The notes under the pieces: model-generated | The model's database searches: none | Seen by the model: the letters and a program-made list of their open reading frames with translations, nothing else | What the model was told of the DNA's origin: nothing | Origin: a virus | Strand: one strand, 5' to 3' | DNA length: 64,000 nucleotides | Virus record (IMG/VR): IMGVR_UViG_3300044611_002115 | Location: 1 to 64,000 of that record | Made by a program: the position numbers and the translations under genes | Shown here: one piece after another, positions 41,756-61,243 of the stretch | How the letters are laid out: each line of letters opens with the position of its first letter | How positions within the stretch are numbered: position 1 is the stretch's first letter

Positions 41756-43393
41756 ATGAAACAGACATCAGCCCGCGAACGCTTCATCTCAGACTTTGAG
41801 ATTTTGAGCCGCAGCGGAATCGGAGTAATACTGACACGCACGCGGGAGCCGCACAGGGCGGAGGACGCGCTGCGGATGTGGGCATTCGAGCACGACAGAA
41901 AGTTCCGCTCGTGGAACGCAGTGCGGGGGTGGCTCGAAACCGTGCCGGAGAGCACCAAGGGGCAGCGCCCCGTGGCGGACAAGCTCATCGACCCATACAT
42001 TGCGCTCAAGCGCATCAACGACGTGGACGGGGGCGGGACGAACGCGTGGCAGGACACTCTCTGCGCCATGCACTATCCTCATTGGGTGCTTCCCAAAATG
42101 CCCGCCTTCATCCAGTGCGTGAAGGAATACGCGCGGGACTTCACGGAGAGCAAGCAGCGCCTAGTCCTGCTCACGCCGGAAGGCTTCGTGCTTCCCGTGG
42201 AGCTGCAAAACGACATCGCCGTGCTGGACTTCGACCTGCCCTCTCGCGGGGAGCTGCGCGAAATCTACGGCAACGTGCTGGAGAGCGTGCAGGACAGCAA
42301 GGGCGCGCAGAGCGTGCACTACACGGACGCCCAAGTGGATGTCCTGCTGGGGAGCGGGAGCGGCATGACGGAGTTCGAGTTTGAAACTGCGCTGTCCAAG
42401 GCGTTCATCACGCACAAGGCGCTCATGCCTAACGTGCCGCTAGAGAAGGTGAACGAAGTCATGCTGGAAACCAAGACGGACGTGGTGAAGCGGAGCGAAG
42501 TGCTGGAGCTGATGGAGCCTGTCAACATGAAGGACGTGGCGGGGCTGGACTTGGCTAAGGAGTGGATCGGCAAGCGCAAGAAGTGCTTCTCAGACGCCGC
42601 GAAGGACTTTGGCGTGGACGTGCCCAAGGGCATCTGCGCCATTGGGCCTCCGGGCACGGGCAAGACGCTGTTCGCCAAGGCCATTGCCAGCGTGCTGCAA
42701 GTGCCCCTCATCCGCTTCGACGTGGGCAAAGTGTTTGGCGGCATCGTGGGGCAGAGCGAGGAGCGCAGCCGCAGCAGCCTTAAGCAGATTGACGCGATGG
42801 CTCCCTGCGTGGTGCTCATCGACGAAATCGACAAGGCGGGCATTGACCCACGGCAGGGGGGCGGGGACAGCGGCGTGAGCAAGCGCGTCATGGGTGCCAT
42901 CCTCACGCACATGCAGGAGACGAAGGCTCCCGTGTTTTGGGTGCTCACAGCAAACCGCGTGGACGGACTCCCGCCGGAGCTGCTGCGGAAGGGGCGCTTG
43001 GACGAAGTGTTCGCAGTGCTGCCGCCTAACGCCACGGAGCGCCTTGAGGTGGTCAAAATCCACCTGCGCAAGCGCAAGCAAGACCCCGCGAAGATTAAGG
43101 GGCTGGACGCAATCGTTACGCGCAGCGAGGGCTTCGTCAGCGCGGAGCTGGAGGCCGCAGTGAAGGAGGCGGTGGTGGAAGCCTACGACAGCAACAAGCC
43201 CGTCACGGCGGAACTCATCGTGCGCCAACTGGAGGGCATGAAGCCCATCAGCGAGGCGTTCGCGGAGGACTTCACACGGATGCGCGAGTGGGCGGAGAGC
43301 AATGCGCGCATGGCAAGCACGCCGGAGGAACAGCCGGAGCCGGAGCACGCGTTCCGCACCCGCACCCGCCGCCGCGCGCTGGACAACAACTAG
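41756..43393 (+). CDS. Ycf46-like AAA+ ATPase
   Basis: GPPGTGKT, LIDEIDK, TANR..LPPELLRKGRLDE. Confidence 0.85.
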   Translation: MKQTSARERFISDFEILSRSGIGVILTRTREPHRAEDALRMWAFEHDRKFRSWNAVRGWLETVPESTKGQRPVADKLIDPYIALKRINDVDGGGTNAWQDTLCAMHYPHWVLPKMPAFIQCVKEYARDFTESKQRLVLLTPEGFVLPVELQNDIAVLDFDLPSRGELREIYGNVLESVQDSKGAQSVHYTDAQVDVLLGSGSGMTEFEFETALSKAFITHKALMPNVPLEKVNEVMLETKTDVVKRSEVLELMEPVNMKDVAGLDLAKEWIGKRKKCFSDAAKDFGVDVPKGICAIGPPGTGKTLFAKAIASVLQVPLIRFDVGKVFGGIVGQSEERSRSSLKQIDAMAPCVVLIDEIDKAGIDPRQGGGDSGVSKRVMGAILTHMQETKAPVFWVLTANRVDGLPPELLRKGRLDEVFAVLPPNATERLEVVKIHLRKRKQDPAKIKGLDAIVTRSEGFVSAELEAAVKEAVVEAYDSNKPVTAELIVRQLEGMKPISEAFAEDFTRMREWAESNARMASTPEEQPEPEHAFRTRTRRRALDNN

Positions 43394-43409
43394 GAGAGGA
43401 GCACACGAC

Positions 43410-44042
43410 ATGAAACAGTCAATCCAAACCATGACAGGGAACGAGACGGTGGCGGATGCGCTCGCTAAAGTGCATCTGTTCCACGTGCAGGAGAAGCGCG
43501 AGGACTTCCTTAGCGCGGCGGCAAAGATGCCCCACGGGCGCGTCCGCTCGCAGGGAAGCCCCGTGTTTGAGAGCGCGGTGGCGGGGGTGCGGCAGGAGAT
43601 AGGCGGGCGCTGGGTGCGTGCCGTCTATGACGTGGAGGAGGGGGAAATCCTCAAGCTCTACGTCAGCCGGAAAGGGGGCTGGGGCGAGCAGATGCGCGCG
43701 TGCGTGCTGTTCCTCCGCGTGCGCCAGCACGCCGCCCTCCGGCGCGTGTCCATCCCGCTGCTCAACGTGCCCAACAAGAGCCGCTTTGAGCGGGCGGACA
43801 TCACGGGGCGCTTCGACGTGCTCACGGCGCGGGAGGTGATGGGGGCGGGCTGCGCGGTGTCGCACAGCAGCGTGATGATGTCGGCACGGAGCGCAGTGGA
43901 CAACACGCTGAGCATCGCGGTGCTGGAGGAGGAAACCACAAGCTCGCCTAAGACCGTCGCTGCAACAGTTGCAGTCGAGGGCGGGGAAAGCAAAGTGATC
44001 CGCGTGCGCCGCCGCGTGCGCCGGATGGAATTCAACAGTTGA
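43410..44042 (+). CDS. Hypothetical protein
   Basis: ORF in AAA operon; GAGGAG upstream. Confidence 0.65.
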   Translation: MKQSIQTMTGNETVADALAKVHLFHVQEKREDFLSAAAKMPHGRVRSQGSPVFESAVAGVRQEIGGRWVRAVYDVEEGEILKLYVSRKGGWGEQMRACVLFLRVRQHAALRRVSIPLLNVPNKSRFERADITGRFDVLTAREVMGAGCAVSHSSVMMSARSAVDNTLSIAVLEEETTSSPKTVAATVAVEGGESKVIRVRRRVRRMEFNS

Positions 44043-44066
44043 CAACTAATCTGCAACAGCTAACTT
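44039..44066 (+). promoter_or_regulatory. Early-type promoter, copy 6
   Basis: TTGACA-ACTAATCTGCAACAGC-TAACTT. Confidence 0.75.
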
Positions 44067-44124
44067 AATCCCGCCCCGTAACAGGGGCGGAAACACAACC
44101 AAAAACCAACAAGGAAAAAACACC

Positions 44125-44577
44125 ATGAGTCATACAACCAAAATCAATCGCGTCCCCATCAAGGACATCGCCGCCCTGCACAGCGCAGTGGCCGAGCTGC
44201 TCGCCAAGGGCGTGCAGTGCACACTCGCGCAGAACGTCGCGCCGCGCATGTTCTACGGCAACCAGCACGGGGTCTGCGACTACGTGCTGCAACTCCCCGC
44301 CAGCCGCTACGACGTGGGGTTCGCCAAGAACGCGGACGGCAGCTACACTCCCGTCTGCGACCTCTGGGGACAGGACATCAGCCGCAACTTGGGCGCACGC
44401 TGCCCGCTGCCCACCAGCACGGAGGGGCGCACGCAGCACGCCATTGGACAGCTTATGCAGGGCTACAGCAAGCACGCCGCCATCAACGCCGCCACCGCAG
44501 CGGGGCACATGGTCGAGTCCTGCACAGTCAACGAGGAGACGGGCGACGTGGAGCTGCTGCTCGCCACCACCTACTAA
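44125..44577 (+). CDS. DUF1257/Ycf35-like protein
   Basis: MSHTTKI..IKD, YDVGF....DGSY...D.W, L.Q.Y. Confidence 0.7.
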   Translation: MSHTTKINRVPIKDIAALHSAVAELLAKGVQCTLAQNVAPRMFYGNQHGVCDYVLQLPASRYDVGFAKNADGSYTPVCDLWGQDISRNLGARCPLPTSTEGRTQHAIGQLMQGYSKHAAINAATAAGHMVESCTVNEETGDVELLLATTY

Positions 44578-44823: not shown

Positions 44824-45180
44824 ATGGCACAGCTCATCACAATAGCGGCGGACGGGAGCATGACCGCGCTGCAAGTCAAGCGGGGGAAGGGGCTGGACTT
44901 GCGGCAGTTCGGGCACGCGGACATCGTGCGCAGCTCGCTCATCGAGTGGGACGCGGAGGTGCAGGGGTGGAAGGTGCGCTTGCTGCACTGCACAGTCGAC
45001 CACGGGCTGCTCACGCCCGACCTCTGCCACAAGGCGGGAGTGGACGTGCCGGACACTGCGCAGCGCTACGGCGAGGGCGGGGAGTGCGCGCTCTACTTCG
45101 ACGAATACGAGGACGCGGTGACAGCGGAAGTGGACGTGATCCAAGGGCTGCGCCGCATATACGGGAGGGACGCAGCGTGA
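44824..45180 (+). CDS. Hypothetical protein (Ycf46-module associated)
   Basis: LITIAADGS..LDLRQFG...IVRSS.IEWD. Confidence 0.6.
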   Translation: MAQLITIAADGSMTALQVKRGKGLDLRQFGHADIVRSSLIEWDAEVQGWKVRLLHCTVDHGLLTPDLCHKAGVDVPDTAQRYGEGGECALYFDEYEDAVTAEVDVIQGLRRIYGRDAA

Positions 45181-45301
45181 AACGCAGTGCAACCAGCCCC
45201 CAAAAAGGCTCAAACTTCGCACAAAAAGGCACCCAGCAGCGCGTTTGGCGCTCTGGGAGGGTAAAGTCAGCGGGCGCAGGGGGAGGGCGCTACAGGGAGC
45301 C

Positions 45302-45553
45302 ATGAGCCAGTATCGCTACATCCACAAGGACGGGAGGGCGTGCGAATGGCTCCCCAGCGGGCGGGGCAGCTACCACGCAATCTGCGCAGCGCTGGGAGAC
45401 GTGGAAGCCAACGACCTGCTGGGGCTTGACGCGGAGACGTGCGAGATGAAGTCGGACGGGGGATACAAGTTCGACGCGGAGCACAAGGCGGAGGTGCTGC
45501 TCATGCGCAGCACAAAGGACGGCAGCATACTTGGAAGGGTGCTGCGCAAGTGA
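45302..45553 (+). CDS. Hypothetical protein
   Basis: GGAG upstream of ATG. Confidence 0.5.
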   Translation: MSQYRYIHKDGRACEWLPSGRGSYHAICAALGDVEANDLLGLDAETCEMKSDGGYKFDAEHKAEVLLMRSTKDGSILGRVLRK

Positions 45554-45568
45554 CCAACAATTTTACGA

Positions 45569-45772
45569 GGGCAGGTAGCTCAATAGGTGTGGGTGAGTCT
45601 GCGCACAGTGGACGCATGGGAGTCGAGCGACGGCTTCTATCTCATGCGCGAGCGGTGCAGGGCAAGTCCCATATCCCGTCGAGGGATAGAGTAGGTGGTG
45701 AGTGCGGAGCCGCTGCGCACGGAAGGCCAAGCGAGCCACTGATGATTGGAGGTTCGACTCCTCCCCTGCCCA
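45569..45772 (+). ncRNA. tRNA-like structured RNA with expanded D and anticodon loops
   Basis: Acceptor GGGCAGG/CCTGCCC+A, TAGCTCA, T-arm GGAGG-TTCGACT-CCTCC; about 130 extra nt. Confidence 0.7.
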
Positions 45773-45994
45773 CAATTTTCAGTTCCGTTGATCGTGGTGT
45801 TCAACGGTTGTGGCGGGGAGGGGTGACACGGGTTGCCCCTCCCTTGCCGCCACTACACGCTGCAACAGTTGCAGCGCTTATCATTCAACAAAAGACCCCG
45901 CCCAGCATTTCTGCCGAGCGGGGTGACACATTAGGTTCCCAACGAATAGGAGCGGGGATCATCCCCTGTTTCCGCAACACTGTCAACACGCATT

Positions 45995-47218
45995 ATGGCA
46001 TCAGACTCTTTTTCCAACCCCGTGCACTTCCGCGATTGGTTCCGCGTAGTCATGCGAAACTGGGCGCAGCACTTATCCCCAGCGGAGGCCATGCTTGTGC
46101 TGTTCGTGCTGGACAGGACGATGGGGTGGGGGAAGGAGTGGGAAATTGTCACGTGCCAGCAGATGCAGGACGGCATCTACTACCAGCGGGACGACGGAGC
46201 TGTGGTGGAGGTGGCAGGGGGCATCGGGCTAAGCGCGGACAGGGCGCAGCGCTTGCTCACGGGGCTTGTGGAGCGGGGCGTGCTGCGGGCGCGGGGCACA
46301 GCGGGGCGGGCGCGGCAGCTTGCGCTCAACTACGAGTGGACGCCTGACACGGACATGAAAGTATCCCAGCGCCCAAAGCAGTTGCAGCGCGGGCTGAAAG
46401 TGCCCAAATCAACCCCCGTTAATATAACGGCCACCCCCGTTAATATAACGCCACCCCCCCGTTATATTAACGGACTAAGAGTAGCAAAGCAACAGGACGG
46501 AAACAAAAGAGAACGGACTGCCGCGCGAGAGCGCGGCGAGGGGAGGCTGGCGGAGGTAGCGGACACAGCAGCACAGCGCACGCGGGACAAGCACGCAGCC
46601 AAGCTCTCCCGCCTAGCCAATGCGGACACGCTCAGCCTAGCCTCCCTTTCCTCCGTGTGGGGCGCGGCATGCGCAGCAGCGCACAGCGGGGAGTCACTGC
46701 CCGACGTGAGGCAGAAGGACTTCCTCATCCTGCAAGCGTGCATGCGCAGGCACAGCGCAGGCGAGCATTCCGTGCGCTTCGTTCCCCTGCTGCAATGGAG
46801 CGTGGCGCAGTGGCGCAGCATAGTGAGCGCCTACTTCCGCTGGATGCCCGATGCCCCCGTGCTGCCGGAGCCTCGTTTCTTTGTGCGCTTCATAGACAGG
46901 TTCCTCAACGCGCACTCGCGCTTGGAGGAGCTGGAGCGCTTGCAGAACATGACGACGCGGGAGCAAATGGTCTATCACCTCACGGCGCGCAAGGGCATGT
47001 CACAGGAGGCGGCGGAGCGCGAGGTGGACGAGAAGCTGGGGCTGCTAAGGATCAAGCAGGACATAGAAGCGGAGCGGAAAAAACTGCAACAGTTGCAGTC
47101 GAGCAGCGTGGAAGCTGTGGAGTCAAAACAACGCCTTGCCTTAATGCAGCGGGAAGCTAAGCAAGTCGAGGCGCGGGCGGTAACATTAACCAAAGGAACA
47201 TTCGACACATGGGAATAG
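45995..47218 (+). CDS. Replication initiator protein (lambda O-like N-terminal wHTH)
   Basis: LSPAE..VL.FVLDRTMGWGK; internal iterons; upstream of loader and DnaB. Confidence 0.7.
   Translation: MASDSFSNPVHFRDWFRVVMRNWAQHLSPAEAMLVLFVLDRTMGWGKEWEIVTCQQMQDGIYYQRDDGAVVEVAGGIGLSADRAQRLLTGLVERGVLRARGTAGRARQLALNYEWTPDTDMKVSQRPKQLQRGLKVPKSTPVNITATPVNITPPPRYINGLRVAKQQDGNKRERTAARERGEGRLAEVADTAAQRTRDKHAAKLSRLANADTLSLASLSSVWGAACAAAHSGESLPDVRQKDFLILQACMRRHSAGEHSVRFVPLLQWSVAQWRSIVSAYFRWMPDAPVLPEPRFFVRFIDRFLNAHSRLEELERLQNMTTREQMVYHLTARKGMSQEAAEREVDEKLGLLRIKQDIEAERKKLQQLQSSSVEAVESKQRLALMQREAKQVEARAVTLTKGTFDTWE
46412..46473. repeat. Iteron-like repeats, probable replication origin
   Basis: ACCCCCGTTAATATAACG twice (21-bp period) plus inverted copy CCGTTATATTAACGG. 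Confidence 0.7.
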
Positions 47219-49082: not shown

Positions 49083-51920
49083 ATGAACATTGACGAGCTT
49101 GAGACGGAGAACTTGAACGTGGGGGGAAACCCCGACGCGCAGATTGCAGTCGTGTGCGACAGCCCATCACAGAACGTGTGGGCGGCGGGGAACGTGATGA
49201 GCACGCACGCCATGAACGTGTTTGGGCAGCAGGCGAAGGACTGCGGCATGACTAAGGACGACTTCTTTTTCGTCACGTGCTCCCCGCCCATCCCAGAGGA
49301 GCATGCGGTGAGCGAGGGGCGCGTGAGCAAGTTCGTGCAGCCTTACGGGGAGGAGCTGATGCGCACGCTGCAACAGTTGCAGCACTGCAAGCTGGTGATC
49401 TACTTGGGCAAGACAGCGGGGCGGCAGGTGCACGGGCGCAGCATTAAGATCAACTCGCTGCGCGGGCGCTTCCAAAACCTACCCATCAACGGGAGGCAGG
49501 TTCCCGTGCTGCCCATGCTAAGCCCCGCCAACGTGCTGCGCAGGCCGGAAGTGGCGAGCATATTCAACGCGGACTTCCACCAAATCACAGCGTTCCGCGA
49601 GGCGGGCTGGAACGTCAAGCGCTACGAAGCGGCGCGGGTGACGACAAAGTATCAGTGGGTCACAGACCTTAGCGCCATCCTCGCCAACCCTCCCAAGGCG
49701 CTCGCGCTGGATACGGAGACGCGTGGCTTGTGGGGAAAGCCCCTGCTGGCAACAATGAGTTGGGGCAAGGGGCACGGCATCTGCATCCCCTTAGATCACA
49801 CCTATTACACGGACATGACGGAGGCGGACGAGCGCAAGCTGCACGCGCAACTCCGCAATCTGCTCGCCAACCCGCGCGTGGCGGTGGCGGGGCACAACTT
49901 AGGGTTCGACGTGGCGGCGCTGCGGCGCATTAACATTGAGGTGGCGAACTGGTATTGCGACACCATGCAGCTTGCCTTCGCGGCGGACGACAACATGCTG
50001 AGCAAGTCGCTCGCGGATTGCGTGAAGCGCTGGGTGCCGGAGCTTGCGGGCTACAGCGACAGCTTCGACGCCACAGTGGACAAGGAGCACATGGAGCTGG
50101 TGCCGCTGGAAAAGATGCTGCCCTATGCGGCGGGCGACGCGGAGGCCACGTTCCTGCTTGCGCAGCGCCTAGTGAAGCTGGTGAAGGAGGACAGCAGGCA
50201 ATGGACTTGCTTCGTCAAAGTGCAGATGCCCGTGCTGCGGATGTTTGTGGGGATGAAGGAGCAGGGGATACTCATTAACCAAGAGGCGCTGCGCACGCTG
50301 GAGGAGGAGATGGCGGTGAGCGAGCGGGAGCTATACCGCAAGCTCATCCGGCGCGTGCCAGCGGAGGTGAAGCGCAAGCACATTGACAAGGGGCTGGCGT
50401 TTAGCAGGGACGAGTTCGTGCGCGACATCCTGTTCAGCAAGGAGGGCTTCGGCCTAACTCCCGTCGTGTTCACTAAGACCACGAGCATGCTAAAGGGTGC
50501 GGCGCGCATACCCAGCACGAGCGCGAAGGATCACCTGCCGTTTTTTGCAGAGGACAACAGCTTCGTCGTGGACTTGATCCAATACCAGAAGCTCGCCAAG
50601 ATGCGCAGCACCTACGTCGGCAGGGAAAGCAAGCGGGTGGTGACGCGGGTGGTGATGAAGAAGGATGGGACGATGCCAGCGGCGCTGGGGAAGAAGCTGG
50701 AGCGCGCGGGGGTGGAGCTGGACTTAGCGACACGCTCCGCGCTGGTGCAGGGGGTGCGGGCACGCACGCGCAGGCGGGTGCTGGAGTTTGACGACAGGCA
50801 GCTCAACGTGGCGCTGAGCGTGCCTATCGGGGAGGGTGCGGACAACTTGCTGGTGACTGACCGCGACCAACTGTTCCTGTCCCAATACAGCGAGCCGACG
50901 GGGTTCTGGCAGCACATCATGGAGGACGGGCGCATCCATCCCAGCTTCCACCTTCACCGCGTAGTCACGGGGCGCAGCAGCAGCAGCGATCCGAATGCGC
51001 AGAACTTTCCCAAGCGCGGCGCGCTCGCCAAGCAGTATCGCAAAATCTTCATCCCCTCGGACGGATACAAAATTATTGAGGCCGACCTTAGCCAAGCGGA
51101 GCTGCGCATTGCGGCGTGGATGGCAGGGGAGACGACCATGCTGCGCATCTACCGCGAGGGCGGGGACATTCACGCAGCAACAGCGGCGGCGATTCTCGGC
51201 ATCACAATGGAGCGCTTCTCCGCACTCAAGGGCAGCAAGGAGGAGGTGCCCGCGAAGTATAAGGTGGGCGGGTTTGATGGAAAGACGTGGGGCGAGTATT
51301 ATGACTTCAAGCGCTTCCAAGCAAAGGCGGTCAACTTCGGGTTCCTCTACGGCATGGGGTGGAAGACGTTCCGCGTGTATGCGAAAACGGACTACGGCCT
51401 CAACTTGAGCGAGGAGCAGTCCATCGCCATGCGCCGCGCGTTCTTCGCCCTCTACCCCCGCCTCGAAGCGTGGCACAAGAGCATGAGGGCATTCGTGCAG
51501 CTTCACGGCTACGTGCGGGGGCTTCACGGCGCGCTGCGCAGGCTCCCCAGCATCGACAGCGACGACGAGGGCGTGCGGGGCGACTGCGAGCGGCAGGCAA
51601 TCAACAGCCCCGTGCAGCGCTTCGCGTCCGACTTGGGGCTGATTGGCATGTTCCGCTTCTGCGAGAACGCGCCCCGCGACGTTGTGCGCCCGCTCGCCTT
51701 CATTCACGACGCGGCAGTGCTGGAGGCGCGGGAGGACTGCGTGCGGGAGTGCGCAGGGGGAATCAAGTGGGCGATGCAGACGCCCCCGCTGGAGGAGTGG
51801 TTCGGCATCAAGTCTCCCATCCCCATCCTTGCGGACGTTTCCGTGGGGACTTCGCTGGGGGCGACGGAGGAGCTGGACGTGGCAGCAGCCGCGCCAAGCT
51901 GGATCAAAATTCAGTGTTGA
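49083..51920 (+). CDS. polA: Family A DNA polymerase with N-terminal UDG-like and 3'-5' exonuclease domains
   Basis: DTET, HNLGFD, YAAGD; TGRSSSSDPNAQN, ADLSQAELR, KAVNFGFLYG, HDA; N-term LGKTAG, SPANVLR. Confidence 0.93.
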   Translation: MNIDELETENLNVGGNPDAQIAVVCDSPSQNVWAAGNVMSTHAMNVFGQQAKDCGMTKDDFFFVTCSPPIPEEHAVSEGRVSKFVQPYGEELMRTLQQLQHCKLVIYLGKTAGRQVHGRSIKINSLRGRFQNLPINGRQVPVLPMLSPANVLRRPEVASIFNADFHQITAFREAGWNVKRYEAARVTTKYQWVTDLSAILANPPKALALDTETRGLWGKPLLATMSWGKGHGICIPLDHTYYTDMTEADERKLHAQLRNLLANPRVAVAGHNLGFDVAALRRINIEVANWYCDTMQLAFAADDNMLSKSLADCVKRWVPELAGYSDSFDATVDKEHMELVPLEKMLPYAAGDAEATFLLAQRLVKLVKEDSRQWTCFVKVQMPVLRMFVGMKEQGILINQEALRTLEEEMAVSERELYRKLIRRVPAEVKRKHIDKGLAFSRDEFVRDILFSKEGFGLTPVVFTKTTSMLKGAARIPSTSAKDHLPFFAEDNSFVVDLIQYQKLAKMRSTYVGRESKRVVTRVVMKKDGTMPAALGKKLERAGVELDLATRSALVQGVRARTRRRVLEFDDRQLNVALSVPIGEGADNLLVTDRDQLFLSQYSEPTGFWQHIMEDGRIHPSFHLHRVVTGRSSSSDPNAQNFPKRGALAKQYRKIFIPSDGYKIIEADLSQAELRIAAWMAGETTMLRIYREGGDIHAATAAAILGITMERFSALKGSKEEVPAKYKVGGFDGKTWGEYYDFKRFQAKAVNFGFLYGMGWKTFRVYAKTDYGLNLSEEQSIAMRRAFFALYPRLEAWHKSMRAFVQLHGYVRGLHGALRRLPSIDSDDEGVRGDCERQAINSPVQRFASDLGLIGMFRFCENAPRDVVRPLAFIHDAAVLEAREDCVRECAGGIKWAMQTPPLEEWFGIKSPIPILADVSVGTSLGATEELDVAAAAPSWIKIQC

Positions 51921-60365: not shown

Positions 60366-61243
60366 GCCTCCTGCGCAGCATGCAGGAGCATGTCCGCCCG
60401 CAGCGCGTCCGCAATCGCGCGCAAAGGCCCGCAGCAGCGCCCGCACTGAGCGAGGGCTACATAACGCGCATGGTGGAGGAAGCGGACGCACAGCCCGACA
60501 GCAGCCGCGTGCGGGAGGGCTACATCCACGTCTCCTCCCTGCTCTCCTTCTGCCCGCGCCTCTACAGGCTCGCAGCAGTGGACGACATCCCCATCGTCAA
60601 CCTCCCGCGCGCAGGCGACCGCATCGTGTGGGCGCTGGGGAGGGCGGCGGAAAAGCACGTGCGCGACGCAGTGCTGGCTCACGTGGGGCTGGGGAACGTG
60701 TATGGGGTGTGGCGCTGCAACTGCGGCATGGTGGCCTACGAGGGGCTTCACAGGGAGCTGCGTTGCACGCACTGCGCCACCCCCGCCAACAATTTTGGCG
60801 AGCTGCCCGTGTTCGACCACGAGCTGCGCATCAGCGGCTCCCCTGACATCCAACTGCACGACGCGGGGAGCAGGCGCATCGTGGAAATCAAGAGCATCAA
60901 CAAGCGGGAGTTTGAGGAGCTGGAGCGCCCCAAGCCCGACCACGTGTTTCAAGCCTCCTTCTACGTGGACTTGCTCCGCGTGATGGGCGAACCCGTGCAC
61001 GAGGAGCTGGCGATATTTTACGTCTGCAAGGACTACACGTTCCGCTCGCCCTACAGGGAGTTTCATGTGGGGGCGGGAGACATGGCAATGCAGATCGCAG
61101 CGGCGAAGGCGAGCGTGGCGCAGTTGCGGGCGTGCGAGATGGGAGGGGCGCTGCCGCCCAAGCTCCCCGTGTGCAGCAGCGCGGCGACGCCGACAGCGCG
61201 CAAGTGTGTGGCGTGCGCGAGCTGCTTTGGGCGAAGGAATTGA
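60362..61243 (+). CDS. Cas4-like PD-(D/E)xK exonuclease
   Basis: HVSSL..CPR, SGSPD, IVEIKS, Q...Y, C-terminal C..C...C. Confidence 0.75.
   Translation: MSLLRSMQEHVRPQRVRNRAQRPAAAPALSEGYITRMVEEADAQPDSSRVREGYIHVSSLLSFCPRLYRLAAVDDIPIVNLPRAGDRIVWALGRAAEKHVRDAVLAHVGLGNVYGVWRCNCGMVAYEGLHRELRCTHCATPANNFGELPVFDHELRISGSPDIQLHDAGSRRIVEIKSINKREFEELERPKPDHVFQASFYVDLLRVMGEPVHEELAIFYVCKDYTFRSPYREFHVGAGDMAMQIAAAKASVAQLRACEMGGALPPKLPVCSSAATPTARKCVACASCFGRRN

Follow-up and report, generated by a model that had tools for sequence, protein, structure and literature searches.

The IMG/VR virus record IMGVR_UViG_3300044611_002115 is complete, spans 77.5 kb and carries direct terminal repeats. In its first 64 kb (this stretch of 64,000 nucleotides (nt) is hereafter the window, and coordinates refer to it), we identified a 204-nt non-coding element on the + strand (45569-45772) that has the shape of a transfer RNA (tRNA) and no anticodon. 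Our preferred, though tentative, reading is that the element is the gene for a non-decoding tRNA mimic, of the same kind as RNA C and RNA D of phage T4 and RNA1 and RNA2 of phage T5. The initial annotation of this DNA had proposed a tRNA mimic among other possibilities, and we favour it because the upper half of the tRNA and the nucleotides of its tertiary pairs are intact while no usable anticodon is left. One of the roles suggested there, a decoy for anticodon nucleases, appears unlikely, since the element displays no anticodon loop.

The two ends of the element form the acceptor stem, in which GGGCAGG (45569-45575) pairs with CCTGCCC (45765-45771) by seven Watson-Crick pairs out of seven, followed by a discriminator A (45772); CCA is not encoded, and the genome continues with CAATTTT. 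The stretch at 45576-45588 comprises U8 and A9 (T8 and A9 in the DNA, 45576-45577), the 5’ strand of the D stem (GCTC, 45578-45581) and the start of the D-loop, AATAGGT, which supplies A14, A15, G18, G19 and U20; on the other side, 45688-45693 comprises A21, the 3’ strand of the D stem (GAGT, 45689-45692) and A26. Between them lies the D-loop insert, made of hairpin I (45589-45672), an 84-nt imperfect rod with a 9-bp helix, CGCAUGGGA/UCUCAUGCG, near its tip, and hairpin II (45673-45687), AUCCC-GUCGA-GGGAU, bringing the whole D-loop to 107 nt (45582-45688). The arm at the anticodon position (45694-45740) has a stem, GGUGG/CCACU (GGTGG/CCACT in the DNA, 45694-45698 with 45736-45740), that closes a loop of 37 nt (45699-45735); this stem and the D stem each contain one G-U pair. 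The variable region is 7 nt long (GAUGAUU, 45741-45747), and by tRNA tertiary rules its last U can pair with A15 (the Levitt pair) and its first G can oppose A26. The T arm (45748-45764) is GGAGG-UUCGACU-CCUCC. The element therefore has the 7-bp acceptor stem, the discriminator and the 5-bp T stem with a 7-nt UUCRANY loop, and lacks an anticodon loop of 7 nt in which position 33 is U and position 37 a purine. The stems, the discriminator, U8-A9 and both loop lengths are just as the initial annotation had placed them. The inner helices that it listed are also all present in the sequence, namely CGCATGGGA (45613-45621) with TCTCATGCG (45640-45648), TATCCC (45672-45677) with GGGATA (45683-45688), GTGTGGG with CCCATAT, and GTGCG (45702-45706) with CGCAC (45716-45720), but GTGTGGG/CCCATAT and TATCCC/GGGATA are rivals for bases 45672-45674 and cannot both form in full.

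The arrangement is more than a chance assembly, since a composite pattern that combines the 5’ 14-mer with a gap, the T-loop and the 3’ acceptor strand had a single match in the window, and 100 shuffles gave none. Nor does the element code for protein: the two open reading frames (ORFs) that overlap it have a third-position G+C content of 0.48-0.65, against 0.76-0.88 in real genes, and lacking this signal of the genome they were rejected as coding. Reading the 37-nt loop by eye, we found no single excision that would give a 7-nt loop with U33; the element thus cannot decode.

The scaffold resembles one particular tRNA. We scanned GTDB, taking one genome per species, for the first 14 bases of the element with its 3’ acceptor strand and discriminator 40-70 nt farther on. 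Among the GTDB matches listed, this signature (GGGCAGGTAGCTCA...CCTGCCCA) belonged to tRNA-Phe(GAA) in 118 of 122 genes, and in viral contigs to tRNA-Phe in 7 of 14. Compared with an alignment of 24 tRNA-Phe genes, the element matches the invariant columns 1-14, G18, G19, U20, A21, G22-G24 and A26, and further G53-C56, A58, C61 and 66-73. The tertiary nucleotides kept in this parse are U8-A14, A9 with U12-A23, G18 and G19 facing U55 and C56, A21, and A26 with G44. Judged by its sequence, then, the scaffold is of tRNA-Phe ancestry. It differs from tRNA-Phe(GAA) in the 99-nt insert after U20, in a variable region of 7 rather than 5 nt, and in an A15-U48 Levitt pair that is a covariant replacement of G15-C48; these departures from the tRNA-Phe columns fit a retained tertiary fold. 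It also differs in having neither an anticodon loop nor the GAA anticodon, which is the main identity element for phenylalanyl-tRNA synthetase (PheRS). No loop of the CUGAARA type is present, and the sole GGAAGG falls within the 37-nt loop, in its unstructured part. Neither bacteria nor viral contigs yielded a close donor tRNA; the nearest tRNA-Phe genes differ in the T stem and the anticodon stem. A covariance model that we built from tRNA-Phe scored 22.4 bits (E 2.5e-4) on the 3’ part of the element, taking as acceptor strand an inner GAGUAGG at 45689; a second such pseudo-acceptor strand, GGGCAAG, lies at 45660. The model gave one other weak match, at genome position 76361-76430, inside a gene and without D and T features.

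The tRNA-like parse is also close to the best predicted fold. When only the acceptor and T stems were fixed in ViennaRNA, the D stem and the anticodon-type stem were recovered at -87.2 kcal/mol, so that the cloverleaf with both inserts comes within 0.2 kcal/mol of the unconstrained minimum free energy of -87.4 kcal/mol. An alternative closure of the D stem with the GAGT at 45595-45598 is 3 kcal/mol worse and loses A21 and A26. Taken alone, the D-loop insert folds into the 84-nt rod plus the 15-nt hairpin, a structure better than those of 197 of 200 shuffles (z -2.75); for hairpin I by itself z is -2.59, with 3 of 200 shuffles equalling its fold. Pairing between the loops of the D-loop insert and the anticodon-side insert did not exceed that in shuffles.

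From this anatomy we infer how the RNA would be expressed, processed and kept stable, and what kind of partner it would have. As only + strand genes lie here and no promoter is predicted beside the element, it would probably be co-transcribed with the accessory genes that precede it. In a tRNA, RNase P, the CCA-adding enzyme and the enzymes that trim the 3’ end read the acceptor/T-arm minihelix, the D stem and the elbow; with its minihelix and its D-loop/T-loop elbow intact, the transcript should be a substrate for the tRNA-maturation enzymes of the host, which would cut before G45569 (RNase P), trim the 3’ end to A45772 and add CCA. The phage itself encodes neither a CCA-adding enzyme nor an RtcB ligase. 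The expected product is a stable L-shaped RNA of ~204 nt with two added domains at tolerated places, a structured rod of ~99 nt at D-loop position 20 and the 37-nt loop at the anticodon end. In tRNAs, position 20 belongs to a variable pocket that faces outwards from the elbow and accommodates additional nucleotides without disturbing the L-shape, and the insert after U20 would be expected to leave it undisturbed as well. Because there is no anticodon, and no GAA in particular, codon reading, recognition by PheRS and charging are not expected; the RNA may act by occupying or recruiting some reader of the upper tRNA half. As a decoy or scaffold it may engage something that recognises the acceptor, the T arm or the elbow, and a reader of acceptor ends or elbows is a more plausible target than an anticodon nuclease. 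As pointers to a target, we found no antisense target in the phage, no insert-insert pairing above chance and no informative neighbour protein; the element has 8 complementary 11-mers in the phage genome against 5.2 in shuffles, and an antisense role towards the phage genome was rejected.

Several observations weigh against a functional mimic. No promoter was predicted next to the element, and 3’ of it there are only weak terminator-like hairpins. The same DNA was found in lake-water metagenomes, but the runs listed with it are five lake-water DNA sequencing runs and no RNA run. The fold of the whole element is modest (z -1.63), and the anticodon-side domain is no more structured than shuffles (z 0.06). 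Three kinds of short direct repeat inside the element (CTGCGCAC, GGTGAGT and GTCGAG, each present twice) could be scars of rearrangement; as for an internal duplication, these short repeats were all that we found of one.

The element is, moreover, a singleton without relatives in the syntenic phages or their whole genomes, in pattern scans of IMG/VR or among 50,697 phage records (BLAST gave chance matches), and consequently offers no covariation. Three phages share the gene order of this region, namely L005 (DnaB 64-66% identical), L006 (47%) and Aeromonas phage HJ05, the nearest cultured phage (PolA identity 50%), and the tRNA-Phe model had no match across their whole genomes. A shape pattern with a long D-loop gap returned 103 stretches in viral contigs, none of them like the element after a filter for acceptor pairing; the same scaffold with a gap of 165-195 nt was absent from viral contigs, and the exact T-arm/acceptor pattern matched ordinary phage tRNA-Tyr genes only. 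Viral and metagenome contigs contained no relatives of the RepO-like protein encoded downstream, and a DnaB search of both gave distant phages only, all without the element. The metagenome contigs that span the element are identical to the window, leaving no variation to test.

A further point against function is a second form of the locus, which co-occurs in runs X2 and X4 and retains just the last 17 nt of the element. In both runs a second contig (462 nt in X2, 167 nt in X4) joins the phage exactly at 45756, with the same 30 unrelated letters upstream of the junction, and is identical to the phage downstream for at least 77 nt (45756-45832). From T-loop G57 onwards (junction feature 45756-45785) the DNA is thus common to two forms with different upstream sequences. 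The simplest reading is that the element has been replaced in this form and is hence dispensable, at least for some variants. The junction sequence was found neither in viral contigs nor in the loci examined. In run X4 the stretch 45420-45755 is not covered by any contig, and there are contig ends at 45419 and 45421 in X4 and X5; we treated this as missing cover and did not use it as evidence.

These observations feed the strongest competing explanation, which we consider unlikely but serious, that the element is a dead relic: a captured tRNA-Phe-type gene wrecked by insertions or rearrangements in the D-loop and the anticodon loop, functionless and not yet deleted. The missing anticodon, the unstructured anticodon domain, the lack of relatives, the variant form reduced to the last 17 nt, and the absence of any tRNA gene from this phage (by ARAGORN and the tRNA-Phe model) and from its relatives would all be natural for a relic. 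The internal repeats are also in line with it, and the pseudo-acceptor strands at 45689 and 45660 hint at duplication. So is a direct repeat that flanks the element, CCAACAATTTT (45554-45564) upstream and CCCACAATTTT (45769-45779) downstream, the two copies being identical at 10 of 11 positions and the second overlapping the 3’ end of the element. This repeat, CC(A/C)ACAATTTT, could be a target-site duplication, or a processing or termination signal shared by the two sites. A third copy of CAACAATTTT occurs at 60787-60796, inside a gene, and the 10-mer CMACAATTTT is found 3 times in the window against 0.14 expected. What speaks against a relic is the pattern of conservation. The anticodon loop has gone, yet the acceptor stem (7/7), the T arm (5/5) and the D stem survive intact, as do all the nucleotides of the elbow, and A15-U48 is a compensated pair; such non-uniform decay, with the core preserved and the anticodon loop unrecognisable, argues against neutral drift. 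In addition, both inserts sit exactly where a tRNA tolerates them, and in a tightly packed genome with its genes on one strand 200 useless bases would not be expected to last.

We also considered, as a rather improbable version of a functional RNA, that the tRNA-Phe body is a display scaffold, with the function carried by the 99-nt arm on the outer face of the elbow and by the remodelled anticodon end, while the L-shape would provide processing by the host, stability and access to tRNA-binding sites. Such an RNA could trap or block a host reader of acceptor ends or elbows, for example a tRNA-targeting abortive-infection toxin. If this were true, the architecture would be new, in that a bacterial-type tRNA fold would carry a large functional domain at D-loop position 20.

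It is also rather improbable that, instead of yielding a free RNA with its own role, the element acts in cis, its tRNA-like fold recruiting RNase P or RNase Z for ‘tRNA punctuation’, a cut in the polycistronic transcript at the boundary between accessory and replication genes, or capping and stabilising the 3’ end of the upstream mRNA. The location suits such a signal, at an operon boundary, 15 nt past the stop of the upstream gene and with three hairpins before the RepO-like gene; so do the lack of a predicted promoter of its own and the fact that the acceptor/T-arm half, which alone is a minimal RNase P substrate, is the best-kept part. Punctuation of this kind, however, requires neither a D arm with G18 and G19 nor a 99-nt structured insert, and relatives with the same gene order do without the element.

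The initial annotation had offered, as an alternative to a mimic, a true tRNA gene with two unconventional introns whose removal would give a decoding tRNA. We regard this as very improbable. When introns are allowed, ARAGORN does call a tRNA-Arg(GCG) with a 111-nt intron (45602-45712) that has the CTGCGCAC direct repeat at both ends, and other phage tRNA genes with odd inserts exist. The model is nevertheless forced, with a 3-bp G-U-rich D stem, an intron before position 32, C37 and a stemless variable arm of 23 nt, and when the D insert was removed in silico the call flipped between Ala-AGC, Arg-GCG and Ser-CGA with the position of the cut. The ARAGORN check that the annotation had recommended therefore yields mutually inconsistent answers. 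Besides the lack of any single excision with U33, there is no match to a group I intron, a ribozyme or another Rfam family, bulge-helix-bulge splicing is not expected in a bacterial host, and the phage encodes no RtcB.

Among the phage loci with odd inserts, we observed a tRNA-Tyr-like gene in a phage tRNA cluster (L003, 4795-4960, - strand) that is broken directly after the anticodon (…GACTGTA) by ~80 nt, beyond which the T arm and the acceptor end are normal; ARAGORN overlooks it at default settings and, if introns are permitted, assigns it implausibly to Gly. A second locus (L076, 3579-3797, + strand), again a tRNA-shaped gene of a phage, keeps its acceptor, D and T arms intact, has an AT-rich insert of ~148 nt in the anticodon loop, and is called by ARAGORN only if introns are allowed.

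Both the identity pair and the model scores rule out a transfer-messenger RNA (tmRNA), including a permuted two-piece form, an exclusion that the initial annotation had anticipated for tmRNA: position 3-70 is G-C, alanyl-tRNA synthetase needing G-U there, and the best of the models tested (RF00023, RF01849-51), a weak beta_tmRNA match at 45748-45821, reaches 12.7 bits against a cut-off of 84. ARAGORN by default does call a ‘tmRNA*’ at 45679-46017 (tag DPAQHFCRAG), but the tag lies within the hairpin stem at 45895-45924 and has no hydrophobic Ala-rich tail, the call extends 23 nt into the RepO-like ORF, and ARAGORN -m on the local stretch finds nothing.

Other identities were rejected. The element is not a canonical tRNA, since its best score with the Rfam tRNA model RF00005 is 18.7 bits (45689-45772, the 3’ 84 nt, through the inner pseudo-acceptor) against a gathering cut-off of 29, and default ARAGORN reports no tRNA. 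No Rfam family reached its gathering threshold on the element. It does not host a group I intron, with no Intron_gpI or ribozyme match at E up to 10 and inserts of 99-107 and 30-37 nt. It is not a YrlA/Y RNA, having no match to RF02553, and the 77.5-kb genome has no Ro60/TROVE gene (a Deinococcus control was positive). Finally, it is not an attachment site of the phage itself, as the genome encodes no tyrosine or serine recombinase.

The record has 62% G+C and carries nearly all its genes on the + strand. In 5’ to 3’ order, the element is preceded by genes for an AAA ATPase, a 246-aa ORF, a DUF1257 protein, a 118-aa ORF and a small ORF at 45302-45553 (+ strand; 83 aa from ATG, open from 45245). 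Like the RNA, this small gene is absent from L005, L006 and HJ05; its protein gave no lead in Pfam, PHROG, PDB or Atlas, and viral contigs gave no match. Downstream, three hairpins (45807-45924, + strand; individually 45807-45856, the terminator-like 45858-45876, and 45895-45924) separate the element from the first gene of the replication module, which encodes a lambda-O-like (RepO-like) initiator (45995-47218, + strand). There follow a 197-aa ORF, a DnaB helicase and a uracil-DNA-glycosylase (UDG)/exonuclease/PolA polymerase, and farther downstream a Toprim primase-like protein, a helicase, RecA and RNase H. The element was correctly described at the outset as lying just upstream of the replication operon, and with the three hairpins in between, the RNA more likely ends the preceding transcription unit. 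The replication genes are of bacterial type and, judging by DnaB, RecA, PolA and the lambda-O-like protein, the host of the phage would be bacterial.

The stretch between the 118-aa ORF and the initiator (45180-45995 in the window, 2135-3834 in L005, 3699-4252 in L006 and 3515-3626 in L117) differs from phage to phage and is thus a variable accessory region, a hot spot for accessory genes. It holds other DNA in L005, with three unrelated ORFs, and in L006, with 0.55 kb, and amounts to 0.1 kb in HJ05, where a 110-nt gap separates the annotated genes in matching positions.

Some features of this neighbourhood deserve mention in their own right. The sequence GGGGTGACAC occurs at 45820-45829 and 45920-45929, exactly 2 copies in the 77.5-kb genome, 100 nt apart and both at hairpins; the two copies are candidate operator or iteron sites of the replication module. 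The relative L005 carries GGGGTGTCACAGCCCC in the gap equivalent to that between the RNA and the RepO-like gene. The AAA ATPase (phrog_8638), the 246-aa ORF and the DUF1257 protein (41756-44577) form a set that adjoins the replication genes on their upstream side; all three are matched in L006, and of the trio only DUF1257 in L005, where the fetched stretch starts just upstream of it. The family A DNA polymerase (49083-51920) has a UDG-like domain N-terminal to its 3’-5’ exonuclease domain, and phages of Aeromonas, Rhizobium, Rhodobacter and Pseudomonas share this UDG-exonuclease-PolA layout in full-length alignments.

Non-decoding tRNA-like RNAs of phages (T4 RNA C and D, T5 RNA1 and RNA2) have been known since the 1970s and their function is unexplained. 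Accessory slots beside replication genes, such as the one described here, are places where counter-defence genes tend to sit. Within this company the element is unusual in having its main insert in the D-loop, in standing alone in a phage without tRNA genes and in occupying such a slot. Each differently built non-decoding phage RNA narrows down the part that is shared and selected, here the acceptor/T-arm minihelix and the intact elbow, and the element would also show where cargo can be grafted. If it is expressed, it offers a compact test case of viral tRNA mimicry; if not, a snapshot of the decay of a captured tRNA gene.

Phage tRNA-like stable RNAs are a descriptive class rather than a homology family, and the element has no sequence similarity to the RNAs of T5 or T4. 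Its most likely place, which we assign with due reserve, is as a new architectural variant of this unexplained class, as its closing stem and T arm are of tRNA type and enclose a middle that does not decode. The T4 and T5 RNAs, folded here, likewise show an acceptor-like stem and a GGUUCRA T arm enclosing a foreign middle. A more distant parallel is given by the YrlA-type Y RNAs that associate with Ro60 (RF02553), non-decoding mimics of the tRNA upper half also present in phages (Chen et al. 2014, PMC4201824). In YrlA, however, both ends of the RNA are located in the Ro-binding stem and a loop closes the acceptor-like stem, whereas the ends of the element form the acceptor stem itself.

T4 RNA C (species 1, 139 nt) and RNA D (species 2, 119 nt), annotated as the stable RNAs rnaC and rnaD, are small phage RNAs beside or derived from tRNA genes. 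They are produced in infection, and Northern blots have confirmed both; no function is known for them to date (PMC9697503). RNA C shares with the element a canonical T arm (CCGGG-UUCGAAU-CCCGG) and a terminal closing helix; unlike the element, the T4 RNAs lie at the end of a tRNA operon, and RNA C retains a smaller part of the tRNA body, showing as folded here no D arm bearing G18 and G19. T5 RNA1 and RNA2 (NC_005859, 30501-30644 and 32959-33083) are annotated as ‘tRNA-like stable RNA with unknown functions’. Like the element, they combine an acceptor-type closing stem, a GGUUCRA T arm and a D-type arm around a foreign, structured, non-decoding middle, and RNA1, at 24 bits, also stays just below the RF00005 cut-off. 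The T5 RNAs measure 125-144 nt, belong to a large tRNA gene cluster and have their extra RNA at the anticodon side, RNA1 looking like a class II, Leu-type tRNA; the element, by contrast, is 204 nt long, lies outside any phage tRNA gene cluster as the only tRNA-like gene of its phage, is of tRNA-Phe type, and has its extra RNA mostly in the D-loop.

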